A DNA stretch of 26,196 nucleotides from a virus (Duplodnaviria > Heunggongvirae > Uroviricota > Caudoviricetes): positions 1-26,196 of the IMG/VR virus record IMGVR_UViG_2874945390_000006; one strand, given 5' to 3'. Made by a program: the position numbers and the translations under genes. Positions 4,166 through 26,196 of this stretch are shown piece after piece (position 1 is the first letter of the stretch; the number at the start of each line of letters is the position of its first letter). The notes beneath the pieces were generated by a model that ran no database searches, was not told the origin of the DNA, and saw only the letters and a program-made list of their open reading frames with translations.

Positions 4166-4273
4166 GGAAACTTTTGCTTAATGAACAATGACAGAATCGT
4201 CGGAAGACCTGAGGTAGCCTGAGTTTAACGGACACTCCTTCCTGAAATAGAATGGCATCAGAAGGAGCTAATA

Positions 4274-4576
4274 ATGAGCAGAAAAACCCAACGTTACTCT
4301 AAAGAGTTCAAAGCCGAAGCTGTCAGAACGGTTCTTGAAAATCAACTTTCGATCAGTGAAGGCGCTTCCCGATTATCCCTTCCTGAAGGCACTTTAGGAC
4401 AATGGGTTACCGCCGCCAGAAAAGGGCTCGGTACTCCTGGTTCCCGCACGGTGGCTGAACTGGAATCTGAAATTCTGCAACTGCGTAAGGCGTTAAATGA
4501 AGCTCGCCTTGAGCGAGATATATTAAAAAAAGCAACAGCGTATTTTGCACAGGAGTCGCTGAAAAATACGCGTTAA
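4274..4576 (+). CDS. IS600 OrfA
   Basis: 100-aa HTH protein; A7 run at 4525-4531 is the likely -1 frameshift site into orfB. Confidence 0.85.
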   Translation: MSRKTQRYSKEFKAEAVRTVLENQLSISEGASRLSLPEGTLGQWVTAARKGLGTPGSRTVAELESEILQLRKALNEARLERDILKKATAYFAQESLKNTR

Positions 4577-4611
4577 TCGAACAATGGCGACAACAATTTC
4601 CCATTGAAGCG

Positions 4612-5430
4612 ATGTGTCAGGTATTTGGTGTATCCAGGAGCGGTTATTACAACTGGGTACAGCATGAACCCTCAGACAGAAAACAAAGTGATGAGCGGCT
4701 AAAACTGGAGATTAAGGTGGCACATATCTGCACTCGCGAAACATATGGAACCCGGCGGCTCCAGACGGAGCTGGCAGAGAATGGCATCATCGTTGGTCGT
4801 GACCGACTGGCACGTCTTCGTAAGGAGCTAAGGCTACGCTGTAAGCAGAAACGCAAGTTCAGAGCGACTACGAACCCGAACCACAATCTGCCAGTTGCGC
4901 CAAATCTGCTGAACCAGACGTTCGCTCCTACAGAACCAAATCAGGTCTGGGTGGCGGACCTGACGTATGTTGCCACACAGGAGGGATGGTTGTACCTCGC
5001 TGGCATCAAAGATGTTTATACGTGCGAAATTGTCGGCTACGCCATGGGAGAGCGCATGACAAAAGAGCTGACAGGTAAAGCCCTGTTTATGGCGCTCAGG
5101 AGCCAGCGCCCACCTGCCGGGCTAATCCACCACTCTGATCGAGGTTCACAGTACTGCGCATACGATTACCGGGTCATACAGGAGCAGTTTGGTCTGAAAA
5201 CATCAATGTCGCGTAAAGGTAACTGTTACGACAACACTCCGATGGAAAGCTTCTGGGGAACGCTGAAAAATGAGAGCCTGAGCCACTATCGTTTTAATAA
5301 CCGGGATGAAGCCATCTCAGTAATACGGGAATACATTGAGATTTTCTACAATCGTCAGCGTCGTCACTCTCGTCTGGGGAATATCTCCCCGGCAGCCTTC
5401 AGGGAAAAATATCATCAGATGGCTGCTTAA
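4612..5430 (+). CDS. IS600 OrfB (DDE transposase catalytic part)
   Basis: 272-aa ORF in the -1 frame; that frame is open back to the A7 run, consistent with an OrfAB fusion. Confidence 0.85.
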   Translation: MCQVFGVSRSGYYNWVQHEPSDRKQSDERLKLEIKVAHICTRETYGTRRLQTELAENGIIVGRDRLARLRKELRLRCKQKRKFRATTNPNHNLPVAPNLLNQTFAPTEPNQVWVADLTYVATQEGWLYLAGIKDVYTCEIVGYAMGERMTKELTGKALFMALRSQRPPAGLIHHSDRGSQYCAYDYRVIQEQFGLKTSMSRKGNCYDNTPMESFWGTLKNESLSHYRFNNRDEAISVIREYIEIFYNRQRRHSRLGNISPAAFREKYHQMAA

Positions 5431-5473
5431 AAAAAGAACAAATGGTAGTGTCCGCTATTGCCAGTACACCTCA

Positions 5474-11893: not shown

Positions 11894-12241
11894 ATGGCTG
11901 AAATGGTAACAGTGGGCTGTAAACTGCCGAACGGTCTGGTGCTGGAAGTGGGTCAGAAACGGGTTCAGGTGGCAGGCTGGCGGAATAACGCGGTTAAAAT
12001 TGTGGGGGGCTATGGTCTGACGCAGGTCGATAAGGTGTTTTTTGACGCCTGGCTGGCGGAGCACGGACAGCAACCTTATGTGAAAAATGGCGTTATTTTT
12101 GCGCAGGATAAGGCGAACAGTGCAGTCTCGCAGGCTACGGAGCAGAAAGCCGTTAAATCCGGCCTTGAACCGCTGCCGCAGAAAAATCCGGCTCCGGGCG
12201 TTAACCGCAATGATGAAGTGATGGGTAAACCTCAGGAGTAA
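11894..12241 (+). CDS. Hypothetical small head-associated protein
   Basis: 115-aa ORF tightly packed between the capsid and connector genes; no recognisable motif. Confidence 0.4.
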
Positions 12242-16779: not shown

Positions 16780-16822
16780 TGAGGTGTACTGGCAATAGCG
16801 GACACTACCATTTGTTCTTTTT

Positions 16823-17641
16823 TTAAGCAGCCATCTGATGATATTTTTCCCTGAAGGCTGCCGGGGAGATATTCCCCAGACGAGAGTGACGACGCTGACG
16901 ATTGTAGAAAATCTCAATGTATTCCCGTATTACTGAGATGGCTTCATCCCGGTTATTAAAACGATAGTGGCTCAGGCTCTCATTTTTCAGCGTTCCCCAG
17001 AAGCTTTCCATCGGAGCGTTGTCGTAACAGTTACCTTTACGCGACATTGATGTTTTCAGACCAAACTGCTCCTGTATGACCCGGTAATCGTATGCGCAGT
17101 ACTGTGAACCTCGATCAGAGTGGTGGATTAGCCCGGCAGGTGGGCGCTGGCTCCTGAGCGCCATAAACAGGGCTTTACCTGTCAGCTCTTTTGTCATGCG
17201 CTCTCCCATGGCGTAGCCGACAATTTCGCACGTATAAACATCTTTGATGCCAGCGAGGTACAACCATCCCTCCTGTGTGGCAACATACGTCAGGTCCGCC
17301 ACCCAGACCTGATTTGGTGCTGTAGGAGCGAACGTCTGGTTCAGCAGATTTGGCGCAACTGGCAGATTGTGGTTCGGGTTCGTAGTCGCTCTGAACTTGC
17401 GTTTCTGCTTACAGCGTAGCCTTAGCTCCTTACGAAGACGTGCCAGTCGGTCACGACCAACGATGATGCCATTCTCTGCCAGCTCCGTCTGGAGCCGCCG
17501 GGTTCCATATGTTTCGCGAGTGCGGATATGTGCCACCTTAATCTCCAGTTTTAGCCGCTCATCACTTTGTTTTCTGTCTGAGGGTTCATGCTGTACCCAG
17601 TTGTAATAACCGCTCCTGGATACACCAAATACCTGACACAT
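16823..17641 (-). CDS. IS600 OrfB (transposase catalytic part)
   Basis: 272 aa, near-identical to the copy 1 OrfB (I/R, E/A and T/A differences). Confidence 0.85.
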   Translation of the reverse strand: MCQVFGVSRSGYYNWVQHEPSDRKQSDERLKLEIKVAHIRTRETYGTRRLQTELAENGIIVGRDRLARLRKELRLRCKQKRKFRATTNPNHNLPVAPNLLNQTFAPTAPNQVWVADLTYVATQEGWLYLAGIKDVYTCEIVGYAMGERMTKELTGKALFMALRSQRPPAGLIHHSDRGSQYCAYDYRVIQEQFGLKTSMSRKGNCYDNAPMESFWGTLKNESLSHYRFNNRDEAISVIREYIEIFYNRQRRHSRLGNISPAAFREKYHQMAA

Positions 17642-17676
17642 CGCTTCAACAGGGAATTGTTGTCGCCATTGTTCGA

Positions 17677-17979
17677 CTAACGCGTATTTTTCAGCGACTC
17701 CTGTGCAAAATACGCTGTTGCTTTTTTTAATATATCTCGCTCAAGGCGAGCTTCATTTAACGCCTTACGCAGTTGCAGAATTTCAGATTCCAGTTCAGCC
17801 ACCGTGCGGGAACCAGGAGTACCGAGCCCTTTTCTGGCGGCGGTAACCCATTGTCCTAAAGTGCCTTCAGGAAGGGATAATCGGGAAGCGCCTTCACTGA
17901 TCGAAAGTTGATTTTCAAGAACCGTTCTGACAGCTTCGGCTTTGAACTCTTTAGAGTAACGTTGGGTTTTTCTGCTCAT
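17677..17979 (-). CDS. IS600 OrfA
   Basis: 100 aa, identical to the copy 1 OrfA; T7 run 17722-17728 is the reverse complement of the slippery A7. Confidence 0.85.
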   Translation of the reverse strand: MSRKTQRYSKEFKAEAVRTVLENQLSISEGASRLSLPEGTLGQWVTAARKGLGTPGSRTVAELESEILQLRKALNEARLERDILKKATAYFAQESLKNTR

Positions 17980-18043
17980 TATTAGCTCCTTCTGATGCCA
18001 TTCTATTTCAGGAAGGAGTGTCCGTTAAACTCAGGCTACCTCA

Positions 18044-18046
18044 CTG
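18044..18046. repeat. 3-bp target-site duplication (CTG), right copy, of IS600 copy 2
   Basis: See left copy at 16777-16779. Confidence 0.7.
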
Positions 18047-19979
18047 CCCTTAACCGGCTCACGACGGTGATGGAAGGTGTCGCTGACACATTCAGTCAGG
18101 GACAGAAGAAAACCAGTGAATCACTGGAAAAAACCGGAAAAGATGCTGATAAAACGGCCCGTCGAATGGAAGATGCCGGGAAACGGGCGTCCCGTTTTTT
18201 TTCAGGGATCCGTAGCGAGATTCTGGCTCTTGCGGGTGTCAGTCTGACGCTGGGGGGGCTGAAGAACCTGGTAACAGGTTTTGCCCGTGATCTGAACCGT
18301 CTGTCCGTGGAATCTGATGCTTTTGGCATGAAGGCCAGAAATCTGGACGGATGGTTACGGGCTGCGCGGGCAAATAATGTTGATGAAGGGGAAATGTCTG
18401 GGGCATTTTCCCGGCTTGCAAATGCAAAAGCGGCCTTCAGAGCCGGAAGGTCCTTTGATCCTGTGTTACAGGATTTGTTTCAGGTTGCAGCCAGGGCGGG
18501 CATTAGTGTTGATTTAAATACTGACAGCACTGAAGCCATCATGCGCAAGCTGGCGGTTATTTTTCCGCGACTGACAAAGTCCGAACAAACTGCCTACGGC
18601 AACGCGCTGGGCTTCAGTTATGCCGGACAGCAGTTTCTTGGCTCCGGTCATGCGCTGAAAGATGTGGACGAATTTACTTCCCGTTCGCAGGTTACGCCGG
18701 AGCGTATAGCGCTGGCCCGTAAGCTACGAAAAGAGCTTGTTGAGCTCGAACAGACCTGGTCCGGCATCGGGATGACGATTAGCACCGCGTTGATGCCGTA
18801 CGCGCTGAAGCTCAGCCACTGGCTGGAGACACTCGGTGACTGGATGCAGCAACATCCGGAGGAAGTGAACAGGTTTATCACCACATTTCTGAATGACGTT
18901 GAGTCAGTGGCCTCCCTGGCGAATAAGGCTGCCGGAGAACTGGGGGGCTGGCAGAATGTCATTATTACGCTGATCGGGCTGAAAGTGGCGTCATGGGTGC
19001 GGGGGCTGACAAAAGCCCTCAGTGGCCCCGGAGGCCTTCTTTTTGCGATAACGGCGCTTTACCCGGTTGTTGACGGATTACTGACATCCATTGTTGGCAG
19101 GGAAAATAAGGACTGGCTGGATTCACATGGTTTTTTCTGGGCTTCAGACGGGACTTTCTTTTTCAATAAGAAAGAGATGGAGACGTATCAGACAAAACTG
19201 GATGCCGGAGAAAAGCCTGGCAACATCACCCGGGCACAATCACCCACAGTATGGCAGCAGGGCATGCTGGATACTCAGGCTTCTCAGGCAACCGGGAGGG
19301 AAGCAGCCTTCGGTGAATCCTGGCTACAGGGTATGCGTGCGACGCAGGAAAAACTCGGTAATGCCATGCAAAACCGCCAGCGACCGACGAAGACCGGGGA
19401 AGCCCTGTTAGGCTGGCTGCAACCGAAACTGTCTCAACTGGAGGAAAAATATAACCTGCCGCCCGGACTGCTGCGCAGCGTTGCGATCACCGAATCCCGT
19501 GGTAATCAGTTTGCCGTCTCACCTGCTGGTGCGATGGGACTGTTTCAGTTCATGCCGAAGACGGCCAGTGAATTTGGTCTGAGGGGGAACGATGCCTTTG
19601 ATCCCGAAAAAGCCGCTGATGCCGCCGCGAGAAAACTTGGTGGCCTGATACGTTTTTTTCATGGCGATCTGGCTAAGGCTCTGGCGGCATATAACTGGGG
19701 AGAGGGAAATGTTCAGCGTAAGGGACTGGCTGCTGCTCCGGAGGAGACCCGCAACTATATTCCGCGGGTGCTGGCGAACCTGCCTTATCCGGGTGCGGCA
19801 ATGGCCATACGGTCGCGCCATCCTGCGCCTGTATCGCAGTCCACCGTAACGGAAACCACGCATATCGGGACACTGAATGTCACCACAACGTCGGACAATG
19901 TGAAGGGTATTACCGATGACGCACGTCGGCGTATCACGAATTCGGCGCTTGTGTCGGTTTATTCCAGCGGGGTAACAGG

Positions 19980-20430
19980 ATGAGTTTTTCTTTCGATAAT
20001 ATTTCCCTGAATAACTTTTCGCTCAGTGAAAGTAACGTACTGAGTGCAGTTCGTGGCGGCGGTGTCCTGGGACTCATTAACAGTGTACTGGCACCGTCAT
20101 TCGGTATTTATTACGCACGGAATGATCCGGCAGGTGCCCATCAGAAGGGTGGCAAACCTTTCTCCCCGGATTCTTTTGTTGTCGTTGAGGTGGGCGCGGA
20201 GGCTTCTGTTTCCACCGTCCCCGTGGAGCAGGGGGCTTATACCACCTTTAATAAAATCCAGAGATCGCCGGAACTGCATGTGACTTTCACTGTAGAGGGG
20301 TGGACGGCCTTTTCCGGATCCGTCCCGAACCTGACAAATTTTTCCACCACCTCGCGGACGAATGTGCTGGAAACGCTTGAAAGGATGCGTACCACGGCAG
20401 GACTCTACGATATTGAGACGCCGGACAAGA
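19980..20430 (+). pseudogene. Tail-associated protein gene following the tape measure gene, 3' end replaced by the IS66-family element
   Basis: ATG 19980 overlaps the tape measure stop (ATGA); the ORF runs into the IS inverted repeat at 20431 and terminates inside it (track ORF 19980-20459). Confidence 0.45.
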
Positions 20431-20512
20431 GTAAGCGCCCCATCAGCGACGTCTTGTGAAAATTGTCCTGTCTGGCAACAATCGCGCCCATCTATATAGA
20501 TGGACACGAACG

Positions 20513-21187
20513 ATGAATTCCCAGACAAAAAAAGATATTCCCTGCTTCCGTTCTTATTTGCCTGATGCCCTGCGTTTAAGATTTGAAGATAAACTGACCA
20601 TCCGGGCCATCGCTCAGCGTCTGGGTCTCAGTCATTCCACAATACATACGCTTTTTCAGCGATTTCTTGCATCCGGTATCGCATGGCCATTGCCCGATTC
20701 AGTTTCATTCGCTCAACTTGACGCCATCCTTTATGCCAACAGAAAGAAGGAATTAACAGAGCCTCAAATCAGAGAAGGCTCATGGCGAAAAGAACGGCGA
20801 ACCAGCTATAGCCGTGAATTTAAGGTCCGTCTGGCTAAGCAGGCGTTACAGCCTGGGGCTGTTGTTGCCCGGATCGCCAGAGAACACGATATCAATAATA
20901 ACCTGCTGTTTAAATGGAAAAGCCAGTACGAGGACGGCTTACTGAGCGATGATGACATACAGGAATGCATGCCTGTCCCGGTGGCACTGACTGATACGCC
21001 GGAGCCGACCAGACCAGTTACAAATCCCTTCTGGCGTAACAAGCATGATGAGCGCCCTGAGGGGGCTCCCGGAAACGTCCCACGGTGCGAGCTGCATCTT
21101 AAATCAGGTGTGGTAAAACTGTTTGACCCTCTCACTCCGGAACTGTTACGGGCGCTAATCCGCGAAATGAAAGGGGGTATCCGATGA
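20513..21187 (+). CDS. IS66-family TnpA (Orf1, HTH accessory protein)
   Basis: Start at ATG 20513 (MNSQTKK...); contains ...RRTSYSREFKVRLAKQALQPGAVVARIAREHDINNNLLFKWKSQYEDG typical of IS66 Orf1. The track ORF begins at 20456, inside the inverted repeat. Confidence 0.7.
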   Translation: MNSQTKKDIPCFRSYLPDALRLRFEDKLTIRAIAQRLGLSHSTIHTLFQRFLASGIAWPLPDSVSFAQLDAILYANRKKELTEPQIREGSWRKERRTSYSREFKVRLAKQALQPGAVVARIAREHDINNNLLFKWKSQYEDGLLSDDDIQECMPVPVALTDTPEPTRPVTNPFWRNKHDERPEGAPGNVPRCELHLKSGVVKLFDPLTPELLRALIREMKGGIR

Positions 21188-21531
21188 TAACGCTGCCGAC
21201 CGGTACCAAAATCTGGATCATCGCTGGCATCACAGATATGCGTTGTGGCTTCAATGGCCTGGCTTCGAAGGTGCAGAACACGCTGAAAGATGACCCGTTC
21301 TCCGGGCATATCTTCGTCTTCCGGGGCCGCAGTGGCAAAATGGTGAAAATACTGTGGGCCGATCGTGACGGGTTATGCCTGTTCGCCAAACGCCTGGAAC
21401 GGGGCCGCTTCGTCTGGCCGGTGACCCGGGAAGGGAAAGTGCACCTGACGCCAGCTCAGTTATCCATGCTACTGGAGGGGATCGCGTGGCAACATCCCAA
21501 ACGGACAGAACGGCCTGGCATCCGGATATAA
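21184..21531 (+). CDS. IS66-family TnpB (Orf2)
   Basis: 115 aa, MITLPTGTKIWIIAGITDMRCGFNGL...ILWADRDGLCLFAKRLERGRFVWP, the conserved IS66 Orf2 family. Confidence 0.85.
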   Translation: MITLPTGTKIWIIAGITDMRCGFNGLASKVQNTLKDDPFSGHIFVFRGRSGKMVKILWADRDGLCLFAKRLERGRFVWPVTREGKVHLTPAQLSMLLEGIAWQHPKRTERPGIRI

Positions 21532-21592
21532 CCCGTGATAAAACAAGGGAATGAACAATTAACTCCCCGATGATATTGAGCTGCTTAAAGCC

Positions 21593-23157
21593 ATGTTGCG
21601 TAAGCAACAGAGTCGGCTTCGACAGTATGCCTGTCAGGTCGCGGGCTATGAGCAGGAAATTGAACGGCTGAAAGCGCAACTCGACAGGTTGCGTCGTATG
21701 TTGTTCGGCCAGAGTTCAGAGAAAAAGCGTCATAAGCTTGAAAATCAGATCCGACAGGCAGAAAAACGACTGTCGGAACTGGAAAACCGGCTGAACACAG
21801 CCAGAAATCTTCTGGAAGATGCATCGTCAGTCACAGATTCACCTGACACCAGTCCCCCGTCAGAAAACCCGATCGCCAGTAAGCCTGAATCCCCGGGACG
21901 AAAATCTTCACGAAAACCGCTGCCGGCAGAACTTCCCCGGGAGACACATCGCCTTCTGCCTGCTGAAACCAGTTGCCCGGCCTGTGGAGGTGTTCTGAAA
22001 GAAATGGGGGAAACAATCTCAGAGCAACTGGATATCATTAATACCGCCTTTAAAGTTATCGAAACCATACGTCCCAAACTGGCCTGTAGCCGGTGTGATG
22101 TCATCGTTCAGGCACCACTTCCCCCTAAACCGATCGAACGCGGTTATGCCAGTGCAGGGTTACTTGCACGGATCCTGGTCAGCAAATATATGGAACATAT
22201 CCCTTTATATCGCCAGTCAGAAATATACGCGCGACAGGGCGTGGAGCTGAGCCGTAATACCATGGTGCGCTGGGTATCAGAAATGGCAGACAAACTCCGT
22301 CCTCTGTATATAGCGCTGAATGACTATGTTCTTGAGGCAGGAAAGGTGCACGCAGATGGCACTCCGGTGAAAGTACTGGCCCCGGGGAACGGAAAGACGA
22401 AAACGGGTCGTCTGTGGGTATACGTCAGGGATGATCGTAATGCGGGTTCATCCCTGCCGGCAGCCGTCTGGTTCGCGTATTCGGCAGATCGCAAAGGAGA
22501 ACATCCGCAGCTCCACCTGGCAAAGTATCAGGGCGTACTGCACTGCAGGCTGATGCCTATGCAGGTTATAACGTACTGTACGAAACGGGCCGGGTGAAGG
22601 AAGCCGGGTGCCTGGCCCACGCCCGCCGAAAAATCCATGACGAGGATGTGCGCCGTCCGACAGAAATGACTCAGGAAGCGCTCAGACGGATAGCAGAGTT
22701 ATACGACATAGAAGCGGAGATACGTGGCAGTCCGGCAGAGGAACGGCTTGCAGTCAGAAAAGCCAGAAGCGTCCAGTTGATGCAGTCGTTGTACGACTGG
22801 ATACAGTTGCAGAGGAAAACGCTGTCGAAACATGCGGAGATGGCGAAGGCGTTCGACTATATCCTGAATCACTGGAATGCGCTGAACGAGTTCTGTCGTG
22901 ACGGCTGGGTGGAAATAGACAACAACATCGGTGAAAACGCGTTACGATCGGTGGCGGTTGGAAGAAAAAATTATCTCTTTTTCGGCTCAGACAAGGGAGG
23001 AGAAAGTGCGGCGATCATCTACAGTCTGCTGGTCACCTGCAAACAGAACGAAGTGGAGCCGGAGGACTGGTTGCGCGAAGTGATCGAGAAGCTCAATGAC
23101 TGGCCGTCGAACCAAGTGCATGAACTGCTGCCCTGGAACTTCTCGTCTGTAAAATAA
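21593..23157 (+). pseudogene. IS66-family transposase TnpC (Orf3), disrupted by a 5-bp tandem duplication (CTGCA CTGCA at 22538-22547)
   Basis: Track ORFs 21593-22597 and 22594-23157 are two halves of one transposase (…CPACGG…HADGTPV…[12 protein letters not shown]… then …[13 protein letters not shown]…[13 protein letters not shown]…). Deleting 5 nt restores the conserved [32 protein letters not shown] stretch. Confidence 0.8.
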
Positions 23158-23189
23158 TCCTTACGCTACGTACTTCTCGGGGCGCTTAC

Positions 23190-23795
23190 ATTGGTACGAC
23201 GAATGCGTTAGGTGGAAGTTCAATCGTTTTAGGAGATAACGATACCGGGTTTAAACAAAATGGCGATGGTCTGCTTGATGTTTATGCGAATGGACAGCAT
23301 GTATTTCGTTTTCAGAATGGCGTGGCTATTGCTTTTAAGAATATTCAGGCCGGAACTGCCAGAAAATTCACGTTATCCAGCGCCAACAACTCCACGAAAA
23401 ATGCAGCGTTTTGTTTGTGGGGTAATCCATCCAGGCCTGTTGTTGCAGAGCTTGGTGATGATTCAGGCTGGCATTTTTTCAGCCAGAGAAACCCGGATAA
23501 CAGCATAGTGTTCACTGTTAACGGACAGGTAATTCCGTTAAATTACGGAAACTTCGATGCCCGCTATAAATATCGAACAGAGGGGGTACAGGATGTACGG
23601 TATGGCCATGAAATGTATTACAGCCCCGGCAGTAACACCGTTTCGTGGAGATTTTGCGCACCTTCGGGACACGGGCTGTCAGGGATGGCGATATCGGATA
23701 CCGGCCGTAACTCAGCGGATAACGTTGACGGTGTGTATTACCGACCACTGCAAAAACTGATTAATGGCACCTGGTATAACGTAGCGAGTATTTAA
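23190..23795 (+). pseudogene. 3' fragment of a side tail fibre gene (receptor-binding C-terminal region), 5' end lost at the IS66-family right end
   Basis: Frame is open from the IS boundary with no upstream start in phage sequence; ends ...YYRPLQKLINGTWYNVASI, resembling the C-terminus of lambdoid Stf proteins; a tail fibre assembly gene follows 3 bp later. Confidence 0.6.
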
Positions 23796-23797
23796 CA

Positions 23798-24220
23798 ATG
23801 TTGCATTTAAAAAATATTACTGCGGGTAATCCGAAAACAGCAGAACAATATCAGATGACAAAACGATATTCGGTCACCTGGCTTTTTTCAGAAGACGGAA
23901 AAAACTGGTATGAAGAGCTGAAGAATTTCGCCAGCGACACAATAAAAATAGCTTACACCGGAGATGGTCGCGTGGTGTGGGTCGGTAAGGATGTGACAGG
24001 CATCGAGCCACGCAATGCCAGCGTTATCGAAGTTCCGGATATTACCGCTAACCGACGGATTACCGCGCCGGGTTACTGGTTTTACCGCAATGATGAATTT
24101 GTCTTTGACTACAGACTCAAAGCGGAAGATGAGCGTGATGCCCTTCTGGCTCAGGTCAGTGCCCGGACAGGGGAATGGGAAGAAGACCTGCTGCTGGGGT
24201 TAATCAGCGAGAAAAGCTGA
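23798..24220 (+). CDS. Tail fibre assembly protein, Mu U-like N-terminus; C-terminus atypical
   Basis: N-terminus MLHLKNITAGNPKTAEQYQMTKRYSVTWLFSEDGKNWYEE...VIEVPDITANRR matches the Mu U/Tfa family; starts 3 bp after the fibre fragment stop. Confidence 0.65.
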   Translation: MLHLKNITAGNPKTAEQYQMTKRYSVTWLFSEDGKNWYEELKNFASDTIKIAYTGDGRVVWVGKDVTGIEPRNASVIEVPDITANRRITAPGYWFYRNDEFVFDYRLKAEDERDALLAQVSARTGEWEEDLLLGLISEKS

Positions 24221-24356
24221 AAGCCTGTCGTATTTACGCGAAATCACTGCAGGCGATGGATTTCAGCACCATCACTGATAAATCCTCATACAACGCCATT
24301 GAATGGTCCGTCTCTCCGGAAGGTTCTTCCTGATTTAATTTATCGCGAGAAAAACT

Positions 24357-25622
24357 ATGTCTGTAGTGATATCAGGTGCGCTGACTGATGGCGCAGGTAT
24401 CCCCATGTCCGGATACCATATTATTCTGAAATCCCGGGTAAACACCCCGGAAGTGGTGATGCACACTGTTGCTGATGTGATGACAGGAAACGATGGTGAA
24501 TACTGTTTCCATGCGCGGACTGGAAAATATGGTGTGTATCTGAAACAGGACTGGCGCAACGAGTACTGTGTTGGCGACATTGCTGTATACGACGACTCAA
24601 AGCCCGGCACGCTGAATGACTTTCTGATTGCTCCTGATGAGGGCGACCTGAAACCGGATGTCGTCAAACGCTTTGAGGAAATGGTGGCGCAGGCGCAGCA
24701 GAGCGCCGGGGCCGCAGCCGGAAACGCACGGCAGACGGCGCAGGATGTGGCGGCAGCCGCAGGTTATGCCCGCGCAGCAGAACAGGCCAAAAATGACATT
24801 GATGCTGCGCTGACCGGCACTCTGAAAACGGCTAACCATCTGTCTGAAATCGCAGCAGCAGGCGAAAAGGCACAACAGAAGTCCCGGGATAGTCTGGGGC
24901 TGAAAAGTGCAGCCACGATGGAAGCACAGAGCGACATTTACGACCGGACAAAAGGCCGTCTGGCGATACCCGGCGCATTCGGCTTTGGGCGTGCTTTTCT
25001 GTATGAAGATGTTATCCGTTTTGACGCTAAGGATGATTTCCTGGCCTGGGTAAGGAATGCGCTGCCAGGTGAATATTCCGTTGCTGCCCCCTACGACATC
25101 ATCATACCCGACGCACTGTTTGAAGGGGGGCTCAGCATCCGGTGGACTGATGCACGCCCTGAGACAAGGGAACCGCGGCGCAGAGCCAAATCCCTTACTT
25201 TTTACGGCATTAACGGCCCCATTTATCACGCCCGCTACCGGCTCTTATCTGGATTTCTGACTGACTGGGTGAAAATAAATATAACCACAGAAGATATTAT
25301 TTACAGAATCGTGGCGAGCTCTGTCCGCAACAGATGGGGAGACCCTGACATTGGCGGGCTGATTATTGCTGCGTACCAGGGAGAAGCTGACGGTGATAAA
25401 GACATCAGACTTGTCAGGGGGCGGTCATACAGAGGCTCACGACTGGGACCGGTGGGGATTTCAGCGCCCTGTACTCCCACCGGAACGCATATAGTATACC
25501 CACAATATTTCATTACGGGATGTTCAGAGCATTCATTACCGGGGTCATATTGCGCCCTGTCCGGGGTGCCGGATACATATGTCTCTGGCGCAATGCTTGG
25601 GCTTTTTATTCGCACATCGTGA
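24357..25622 (+). CDS. Side tail fibre protein with prophage tail-fibre N-terminal domain
   Basis: 421 aa; N-terminus MSVVISGALTDGAGIPMSGYHIILKSRVNTPEVV...VYDDSKPGTLNDFLIAPDEGDLKPDVV parallels the conserved N-terminal domain of E. coli prophage Stf proteins, followed by an Ala/Gln-rich coiled region and a distinct C-terminal domain. Confidence 0.65.
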   Translation: MSVVISGALTDGAGIPMSGYHIILKSRVNTPEVVMHTVADVMTGNDGEYCFHARTGKYGVYLKQDWRNEYCVGDIAVYDDSKPGTLNDFLIAPDEGDLKPDVVKRFEEMVAQAQQSAGAAAGNARQTAQDVAAAAGYARAAEQAKNDIDAALTGTLKTANHLSEIAAAGEKAQQKSRDSLGLKSAATMEAQSDIYDRTKGRLAIPGAFGFGRAFLYEDVIRFDAKDDFLAWVRNALPGEYSVAAPYDIIIPDALFEGGLSIRWTDARPETREPRRRAKSLTFYGINGPIYHARYRLLSGFLTDWVKINITTEDIIYRIVASSVRNRWGDPDIGGLIIAAYQGEADGDKDIRLVRGRSYRGSRLGPVGISAPCTPTGTHIVYPQYFITGCSEHSLPGSYCALSGVPDTYVSGAMLGLFIRTS

Positions 25623-25632
25623 GGAATGCACC

Positions 25633-26196
25633 GTGGAAATTAAAAAAATCATTAATCCCCGTTATACCGAAAGTGGCGCAGTAGACTGTGACGTTTTTTT
25701 TGACGACAGGGACCAGGCAGTCCCCTACACAGCCACCGCTGATGATGTCGCTTCGACGGGTCAGCAAATCTGGCAGGAACTGCAAAGCGGCAAATGGGGT
25801 GAGATAGCCCCATTCACTGTGACACCAGAAATGCTGGAAGCGGCCAGAGAGGCCAGACGTCAGGGAATTGAAGCATGGCGCACAGAACAGGAGGCGAAGC
25901 CGTTCACGTTTGAATGGAACGGTCGTATCTGGAATGCTGGCCCCAACTCACTGGGCCGCCTTTATCCGGTGGTAATGGCTGCGAAATCCGACATTGTACG
26001 GGACGTGATGACGTGGGGTGATGCCGATAATCAGCAGGTGAAACTGTCGATGCCGGAACTGGAAGAACTGGCGGCAGCAATGGCTCAGGCACAGGTTGAG
26101 CGCAATGACGAGATTTATCGCCGTCAGCGGGAGCTGAAGGAAGAGCTGAATAGTCTGAAGGATTTGAATTCGGTTAGGAATTTTATCGTGGAATAA
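25633..26196 (+). CDS. Putative tail fibre assembly/chaperone protein
   Basis: 188 aa from GTG 25633 (RBS GAGGAA 7 nt upstream); the track ORF starts earlier at 25579 and overlaps the fibre gene. Assigned by position directly downstream of the fibre gene; stop TAA at the last three bases of the window. Confidence 0.4.
   Translation: MEIKKIINPRYTESGAVDCDVFFDDRDQAVPYTATADDVASTGQQIWQELQSGKWGEIAPFTVTPEMLEAAREARRQGIEAWRTEQEAKPFTFEWNGRIWNAGPNSLGRLYPVVMAAKSDIVRDVMTWGDADNQQVKLSMPELEELAAAMAQAQVERNDEIYRRQRELKEELNSLKDLNSVRNFIVE

Follow-up and report, generated by a model that had tools for sequence, protein, structure and literature searches.

IS66-Family Elements and Split Transposase Genes

Insertion sequences (ISs) of the IS66 family, such as IS66 and IS679, carry three genes, tnpA, tnpB and tnpC. 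The last of these encodes a transposase with a DDE_Tnp_IS66 domain and a CxAHxRR motif. The termini of these elements begin with GTAA, and they are flanked by an 8-bp target duplication. All three genes are reportedly required for transposition of IS679. The element described here, ISSfl3, has the same features, and its proteins are expected to share about 50% identity or less with those of IS679 and IS66.

Two other kinds of element invite comparison. Miniature inverted-repeat elements (MITEs) and defective IS copies that are mobilised in trans have intact ends, no working transposase, and many copies with target duplications. In the IS1 and IS3 families, the transposase frame is split into two overlapping open reading frames (ORFs), which are read through by programmed -1 frameshifting. 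An example is IS600, which is found in the DNA analysed here. Every member of these families has the split, which lies on a slippery heptamer.

The locus in question lies in a stretch of 26,196 nucleotides of DNA, hereafter the window. It is a copy of ISSfl3 that is 99.3–99.9% identical in nucleotide sequence to intact ISSfl3 copies, with the same ends and the same order of genes; 8-bp target duplications are found in its sibling copies. Unlike intact ISSfl3, the window copy has 5 additional base pairs, a split tnpC, a stop at codon 4, a D270G substitution, and no target duplication. The lineage to which it belongs resembles MITEs and defective IS copies in the three respects named above, but its members are full length with tnpA and tnpB open, and their mobilisation after inactivation is something that we infer. 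No helper element for the lineage was identified among the copies examined in the same genome. The split of tnpC recalls the IS1 and IS3 families. However, it is a derived 5-bp insertion with no heptamer, absent from most copies and from all homologues.

The ISSfl3 Copy in the Window

The element occupies positions 20431 to 23189; features lie on the plus strand unless otherwise stated. Its length is 2759 bp, compared with 2754 bp in intact copies, the difference being a 5-bp duplication. It was identified by full-length nucleotide identity, using megablast against complete E. coli genomes and plasmids. An isoform of ISSfl3 is taken to have at least 95% nucleotide identity over the full length, here with the copies that RefSeq annotates as ISSfl3 as the reference, and the identity found lies above that value. 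The same element goes under the name “ISSfl4” in the annotation of pCP301 and Sb227. A sequence-only reading of this DNA had assigned the transposase to the IS66 family, and both the nucleotide identity and the NCBIfam and Pfam models agree. IS66_access_TnpA, IS66_TnpB and transpos_IS66 all score above their NCBIfam cut-offs, and the organisation tnpA-tnpB-tnpC, with tnpA and tnpB overlapping, is that of the family.

The terminal inverted repeats have a perfect 11-bp core. It was located by an inverted-repeat search and, at both ends, by direct reading; it is GTAAGCGCCCC on the left (20431–20441) and GGGGCGCTTAC on the right (23179–23189). The repeats start with 5'-GTAA, as in the IS66 family, and the ends are the same as those of intact copies. 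The 8-bp target-site duplication typical of IS66 elements is missing, the flanks being GGACAAGA and ATTGGTAC. Such a duplication was found in the sibling copies L005, L012, L015, L016 and L017 and in the intact copy L001.

The tnpA gene (20513–21187) is open and encodes 224 residues, which match IS66_access_TnpA with 283.9 bits. Its product differs from that of the copies in enteroinvasive E. coli (EIEC) by T6K, D129N and P178H. The tnpB gene (21184–21531) overlaps tnpA in an ATGA, is likewise open, and encodes 115 residues that match Pfam TnpB_IS66 (5.4e-39) and NCBIfam IS66_TnpB. In intact copies, tnpC is annotated to start 20 nt past the tnpB stop, and its product has 533 residues. In the window copy, tnpC falls into two parts. 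The 5' part, in the original frame (21551–22597), matches LZ_Tnp_IS66, zf-IS66 and positions 2–132 of the 284 in the Pfam DDE_Tnp_IS66 profile. The 3' part, in the shifted frame (22549–23157), matches positions 148–283 of that profile and DDE_Tnp_IS66_C.

A 5-bp Duplication Splits the Transposase Gene

At positions 22535–22549 the window reads GTA CTGCA CTGCA GG. The 5-periodic sequence ACTGCACTGCA at 22537–22547, that is, ACTGC-ACTGC-A, can be read directly and is a 5-bp tandem duplication by comparison with intact copies. In the intact copies L001, L002 and L003, the site is GTACTGCAGG, with a single ACTGC unit. This comparison is what identifies the repeat as a mutation, since the pattern by itself is not evidence: the window holds three 11-nt stretches of period 5, compared with 4.1 ± 1.9 in shuffled sequences, which is unremarkable. 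A second such stretch, at 21007–21017 within tnpA, is not a mutation, because intact copies have it too.

The duplication divides tnpC into an ORF of 334 residues (21593–22597) and an ORF of 187 residues (22594–23157). If any 5-nt register within 22537–22543 is removed in silico, a single open frame for a TnpC of 533 residues results. The sequence-only reading had proposed this split into two ORFs, and that loss of one CTGCA unit would restore the conserved motif; the sequence, the ORF coordinates and the in-silico deletion all bear it out. It had further expected intact copies to carry a single unit. As they do, the duplication is the derived state. A slipped-strand origin for it can reasonably be inferred.

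The consequences for the protein follow from where the duplication lies. It is two codons before D333, the Asp of QADAY (QADAYAGY) and the second catalytic Asp. In an alignment of 106 homologues, D269, D270 and E460 are present in 106 of 106 and D333 in 100, and the segment C352–K359 (CxAHxRRK) is nearly invariant. We take the conserved D/D/E residues and the CwAH-rR motif of TnpC to be the DDE triad and its companion motif, as reportedly described by Gourbeyre et al. 2010.

All of these elements (DD at 269–270, D333, CLAHARRK at 352–359, and E460) are present in the repaired TnpC. In the gene as it stands, the domain is divided between two ORFs, neither of which includes D333. The upstream ORF has its first ATG past the early stop at 21593, is out of frame from 22542 onwards, and ends 16 codons past the frameshift, in nonsense sequence, at the TGA of 22595–22597. 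The second catalytic Asp codon is at 22552–22554, whereas the callable downstream ORF begins at a GTG at 22594. The gap between profile positions 132 and 148 contains the segment QADAYAGY, and neither ORF encodes it. The shifted frame is open from 22441, and a scan of it found no ATG, GTG or TTG before 22594. D333 is therefore outside every normally initiated product. No normally translated product holds the full catalytic triad, and so tnpC is dead as written. Judged from its sequence, it is an IS66-family tnpC that has become a pseudogene. This accords with the earlier proposal that the transposase had been killed and that the copy is non-autonomous, the DDE gene being broken just upstream of the second catalytic Asp.

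When repaired and given E4, D270 and D313, the protein is identical to P0121, an “ISSfl3 family transposase” found on 576 contigs. The fragments of 348 and 187 residues are found on 26 and 36 contigs, respectively.

Further Lesions in the Window Copy

Comparison with intact copies reveals two further changes in tnpC. Codon 4 (21560–21562) is TAA, a premature stop, where intact copies have GAA. This stop is found in five copies of the lineage, including L012, L016 and L044, and most siblings lack it. A restart at M15 would not be harmless, because residues 5–16 of TnpC are conserved among homologues. The second change is D270G (GAC to GGC, 22358–22360), in the HADDTP motif, at a residue that is Asp in 106 of 106 homologues; three lineage copies have it. 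A third candidate, G313D, which differs from the EIEC copies, was rejected as a lesion: Asp is the family consensus at that position, in 99 of 106 homologues.

The window copy is thus triply damaged, by the duplication, the codon-4 stop and D270G. For annotation, this means that the ISSfl3 copy should be labelled a dead element and a pseudogene, and that three reversions would be needed to restore it, not one.

Across the lineage, the mutations within tnpC are the codon-4 stop, D270G, two more missense changes and a single synonymous one. Such a pattern resembles neutral decay and counts against use of the gene through recoding.

Distribution of the Duplication

Exact protein matches place the region in the chromosome of Shigella boydii ATCC 49812 (CP026836.1), at about 796–804 kb. 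The 187-residue downstream ORF, which is a separate gene only where tnpC is split, is encoded at many places in CP026836.1 and on plasmids. The duplication is present in all 14 ISSfl3 copies examined: three on plasmid NZ_CP026837.1 and 11 in the chromosome (L009–L017, L044 and L050), the latter a sample of at least 11 copies drawn from the matches listed, in which copies past about 3.5 Mb or with another TnpB allele would be missed. All 14 also share 20623G, 20845G, 20857G, 21045A, 21234A, 21280A and 22488A, which set them apart from the intact EIEC copies L001 and L002.

Several of these copies lie in perfect 8-bp target duplications. In CP026836.1 these are GAAACAGC (L012), CCTCATTC (L015), CATACATC (L016) and AGGCGAAG (L017). 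The duplication-bearing copy L005, on the virulence plasmid (pINV) of EIEC, has AATTCATT. The target duplication of L011 is 9 bp long, and the flanks of L009 match at seven of eight positions.

No intact ISSfl3 that might serve as a helper was found among the three plasmid copies and 11 chromosomal copies of ATCC 49812. The intact protein P0121 occurs, among the matches listed, in other genomes only.

The duplication is also found outside this strain. It is on the pINV of EIEC 201908119, from France, and in four Logan short-read assemblies, there on a collapsed IS contig. The split product occurs in S. boydii Sb227 (ABB66300.1) and in S. dysenteriae 155-74. Among 115 plasmid records that hold the site, 104 have the intact allele and three have the duplication, those same three being without an intact allele. 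The site is also present in 48 complete E. coli genomes, all of them without the duplication. An exact-pattern scan of species-representative genomes gave no matches, which is uninformative, because that collection presumably counts Shigella under E. coli.

Because all 14 copies from this chromosome and plasmid carry the same duplication, as do copies in other strains, the duplication is, on this comparison, evidently an inherited lineage marker in the window copy rather than a private accident. The sequence-only reading had implied a private hit on one copy, and this part of it has to be given up. It had also considered that all copies might carry the same 10 nucleotides and still encode a contiguous transposase in another frame arrangement. 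The same 10 nucleotides were indeed found in all copies seen in the genome, but a contiguous transposase was found in none.

Some members of the lineage show peculiarities of their own. L044, at about 120 kb in CP026836.1, is truncated and ends at IS nucleotide 2594, and L050, at about 1.83 Mb, is broken off at nucleotide 2185, where an IS3-family element has inserted; both carry the duplication. At the equivalent of 20897, L017 (at about 3.51 Mb) has G, like the intact lineage, in contrast to the A of every other lineage member. Either a back-mutation or conversion from a non-lineage copy formerly present beside it could account for this. On NZ_CP026837.1, two duplication-bearing copies in inverted orientation, at 26607–29365 (minus strand) and 32028–34786 (plus strand), flank ospI. 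In L005, the orthologous EIEC copy, the target duplication is still present. The copy on the plus strand has lost it, which suggests a rearrangement between copies.

Evolution of the Defective Lineage

The best overall explanation, to which we give a probability of roughly 85%, is that the window holds a dead ISSfl3 copy with an inherited duplication, which had a single old origin and was followed by the spread of a defective lineage. The duplication would have arisen once, by replication slippage, possibly in a copy borne on pINV. The defective lineage would next have spread to at least 14 sites. The likeliest route is mobilisation by the transposase of an intact ISSfl3, which would have been present at the time and which was later lost or was not found. 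Later mutations would have been shuffled among the copies by gene conversion. The window copy would afterwards have joined in an IS-mediated deletion of 4.3 kb from the baseplate module of the prophage.

A single origin with amplification is favoured because the duplication is accompanied, except in L017, by single-nucleotide polymorphisms (SNPs) 1.5 kb away, an association that short conversion tracts, even if repeated, could hardly produce. Amplification of an element that is already defective requires a transposase from elsewhere. Because its ends, tnpA and tnpB are intact, the window copy could be mobilised if a transposase were supplied in trans. Likewise, that duplication-bearing copies occupy at least five distinct sites with target duplications fits mobilisation in trans, with gene conversion as the alternative. 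A point against mobilisation in trans is that the helper it calls for would have to be one that was lost or escaped notice. A full-text literature search for trans-complementation in IS66 elements found nothing.

The main competitor, which we consider unlikely, is that a functional ISSfl3 multiplied and that gene conversion then homogenised the duplication across the family (concerted evolution), without any defective copy ever having transposed. In principle, gene conversion could have carried the duplication into copies that were inserted while intact. Conversion between ISSfl3 copies is shown by the sequences themselves, because the four-gamete test fails in three site pairs among the five informative sites 20498, 20529, 21560, 22333 and 22359 (in comparison with L004 and L009–L017), and because the window copy is an apparent patchwork of L011-like, L016-like and L009-like segments. 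Moreover, the S. boydii plasmid copy next to ospC4 has the duplication, whereas the orthologous and identically flanked pINV copy of EIEC RMDEC332 does not. For a neutral variant, moreover, the chance of fixation among the N copies of a family is about 1/N. However, all copies but L017 share the lineage SNPs 1.5 kb away (20897A and 21045A), and L017 departs from them at 20897. The mosaic implies conversion tracts of less than about 0.8 kb, which would call for several independent sweeps across 14 or more copies. At the ospC4 site, the IS differs by 6 SNPs in 2415 bp and the flanks by 2 SNPs and 1 indel in about 2100 bp. The two are similar, and divergence of the IS is not clearly above that of the flanks. 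Simple descent, with an origin of the duplication on pINV, would account for this pattern, and there is no need to invoke conversion.

That the frameshifted lineage is still mobile without an intact copy seems improbable to us, whether through traces of TnpC made by a +5 hop or because a full-length non-autonomous IS has replaced its autonomous parent. Translational bypass of the frameshift, by which the lineage would move itself at a low level, we rate as slightly more improbable again. The ribosome could hop by +5 with peptidyl-tRNA-Leu from the CUG at 22538–40 to the CUG at 22543–45, which would give exact wild-type TnpC, or it could slip by -1 at the A_AAG of 22522–25. The duplication does supply matched take-off and landing codons, and the tetramer lies 12 nt upstream of it; restoring the frame needs -1, +2 or +5. 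It also speaks for bypass that all 14 copies are frameshifted, several with target duplications, and that no helper is visible among the copies examined. On the other hand, the split is not a conserved design: the frame is contiguous in 104 of the 115 plasmid records, in all 48 E. coli genomes and in all 106 homologues (proteins of 500–560 residues). There is no X_XXY_YYZ heptamer, only the tetramer. CAC, the codon that follows the take-off site, is not a rare one. The predicted local RNA fold does not stand out (z = -1.9), and it begins directly after A_AAG, without a spacer. A conserved split and a slippery heptamer with a spaced stimulatory structure, which characterise programmed frameshifting, are thus both absent. 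A slip at A_AAG would in addition exchange the conserved YQGVL for VSGRTAL beside the catalytic Asp. The codon-4 stop and D270G, in five and three copies of the lineage, form the pattern of a gene without selection. The remaining possibilities concern the duplication itself. It might be the footprint of a removed element with 5-bp target duplications, such as IS2 or a member of the Tn3 family. The repeat is exactly 5 bp long, and several elements that are common in Shigella make target duplications of this length. Removal of an element in enterobacteria, however, usually takes one repeat along, and no ISSfl3 copy among the matches is interrupted at the duplication site; the insertions seen, of IS600 and ISEc11, are at other positions. 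We regard a footprint as very improbable. Practically no weight can be given to a recent mutation private to the window copy, in favour of which there is nothing beyond the window itself, and against which stand the same 10 nucleotides in 13 other copies of the genome and plasmid, in the French pINV, in Sb227 and in the short-read assemblies. An artefact of sequencing or assembly has an equally negligible chance. The source is a repeat-rich long-read assembly, to judge from the closed genome, but the same allele comes from independent projects and technologies (Sb227, the French pINV and the four Logan assemblies), and the copies of CP026836.1 are individually resolved by private SNPs.

A frameshifted IS pseudogene as such is ordinary. 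The interest of the case is modest and lies in the dead lineage being the sole form of ISSfl3 seen in the genome. For IS biology, it means that every visible ISSfl3 member of one genome is frameshifted, and yet that members are found at many sites with fresh target duplications. The spread of a defective lineage bears on the trans action of IS66-family transposases and on the burn-out of IS families in Shigella.

A Deletion Junction in a Degraded Prophage

The IS lies within a degraded myovirus-like prophage with portal, DUF3383 sheath-like, tape-measure/SLT and tail-fibre genes. An uninterrupted relative of this prophage was found in the E. coli genome collection, in EIEC O121 (L054). The left flank (19980–20430) consists of the first 150 codons of a phage baseplate gene of 236 residues, cut by the IS. 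It is part of a region with 99.9% identity to positions 12001–14331 of L054, where the gene continues to 14591. The right flank (23190–23795) consists of the last 201 codons, the 3' end, of a tail-fibre gene likewise cut by the IS; in L054 the matching sequence begins at 18626. This flank shares 66% identity with the C-terminus of gp67 in PP818812.1. A megablast search of the left flank against phages found only an IS600 copy.

The junctions at 20430 and 23190 thus map to 14331 and 18626 in L054. The intervening 4294 bp (L054 14332–18625), which hold baseplate genes and the 5' part of tail-fibre genes, are missing from the window, and the IS stands in their place. Because the flanks are 4294 bp apart in L054, the IS is on a deletion junction, which explains why the window copy has no target-site duplication. 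Among the loci compared, no partner ISSfl3 copy had the swapped flanks of the window copy. The prophage is unable to build a baseplate. On pINV, recombination that leads to deletions most often involves pairs of ISSfl4 and ISSfl3 (PMC5629016). ISSfl3 serves as a deletion junction in the prophage as it does there.

The 26 kb of prophage hold at least four IS copies. Two are full-length copies of IS600 of 1264 bp each, at 4210–5473 (plus strand) and 16780–18043 (minus strand), 99.5–99.6% identical to the IS600 in L003. The second is directly upstream of, or inside, the start of the tape-measure/SLT gene (17995–19983). A further IS3-family element, at about 884–2088 on the plus strand, consists of an ORF at 884–1222 followed by an ORF at 1249–2088 with rve and rve_3 domains.

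The record PP818812.1 (L043), named “Actinobacillus phage vB_Apl-pPE4”, has tail-fibre and assembly genes at 22224–25967 with about 83% DNA identity to the Shigella prophage. This likeness reflects either an odd host assignment or a recent exchange.
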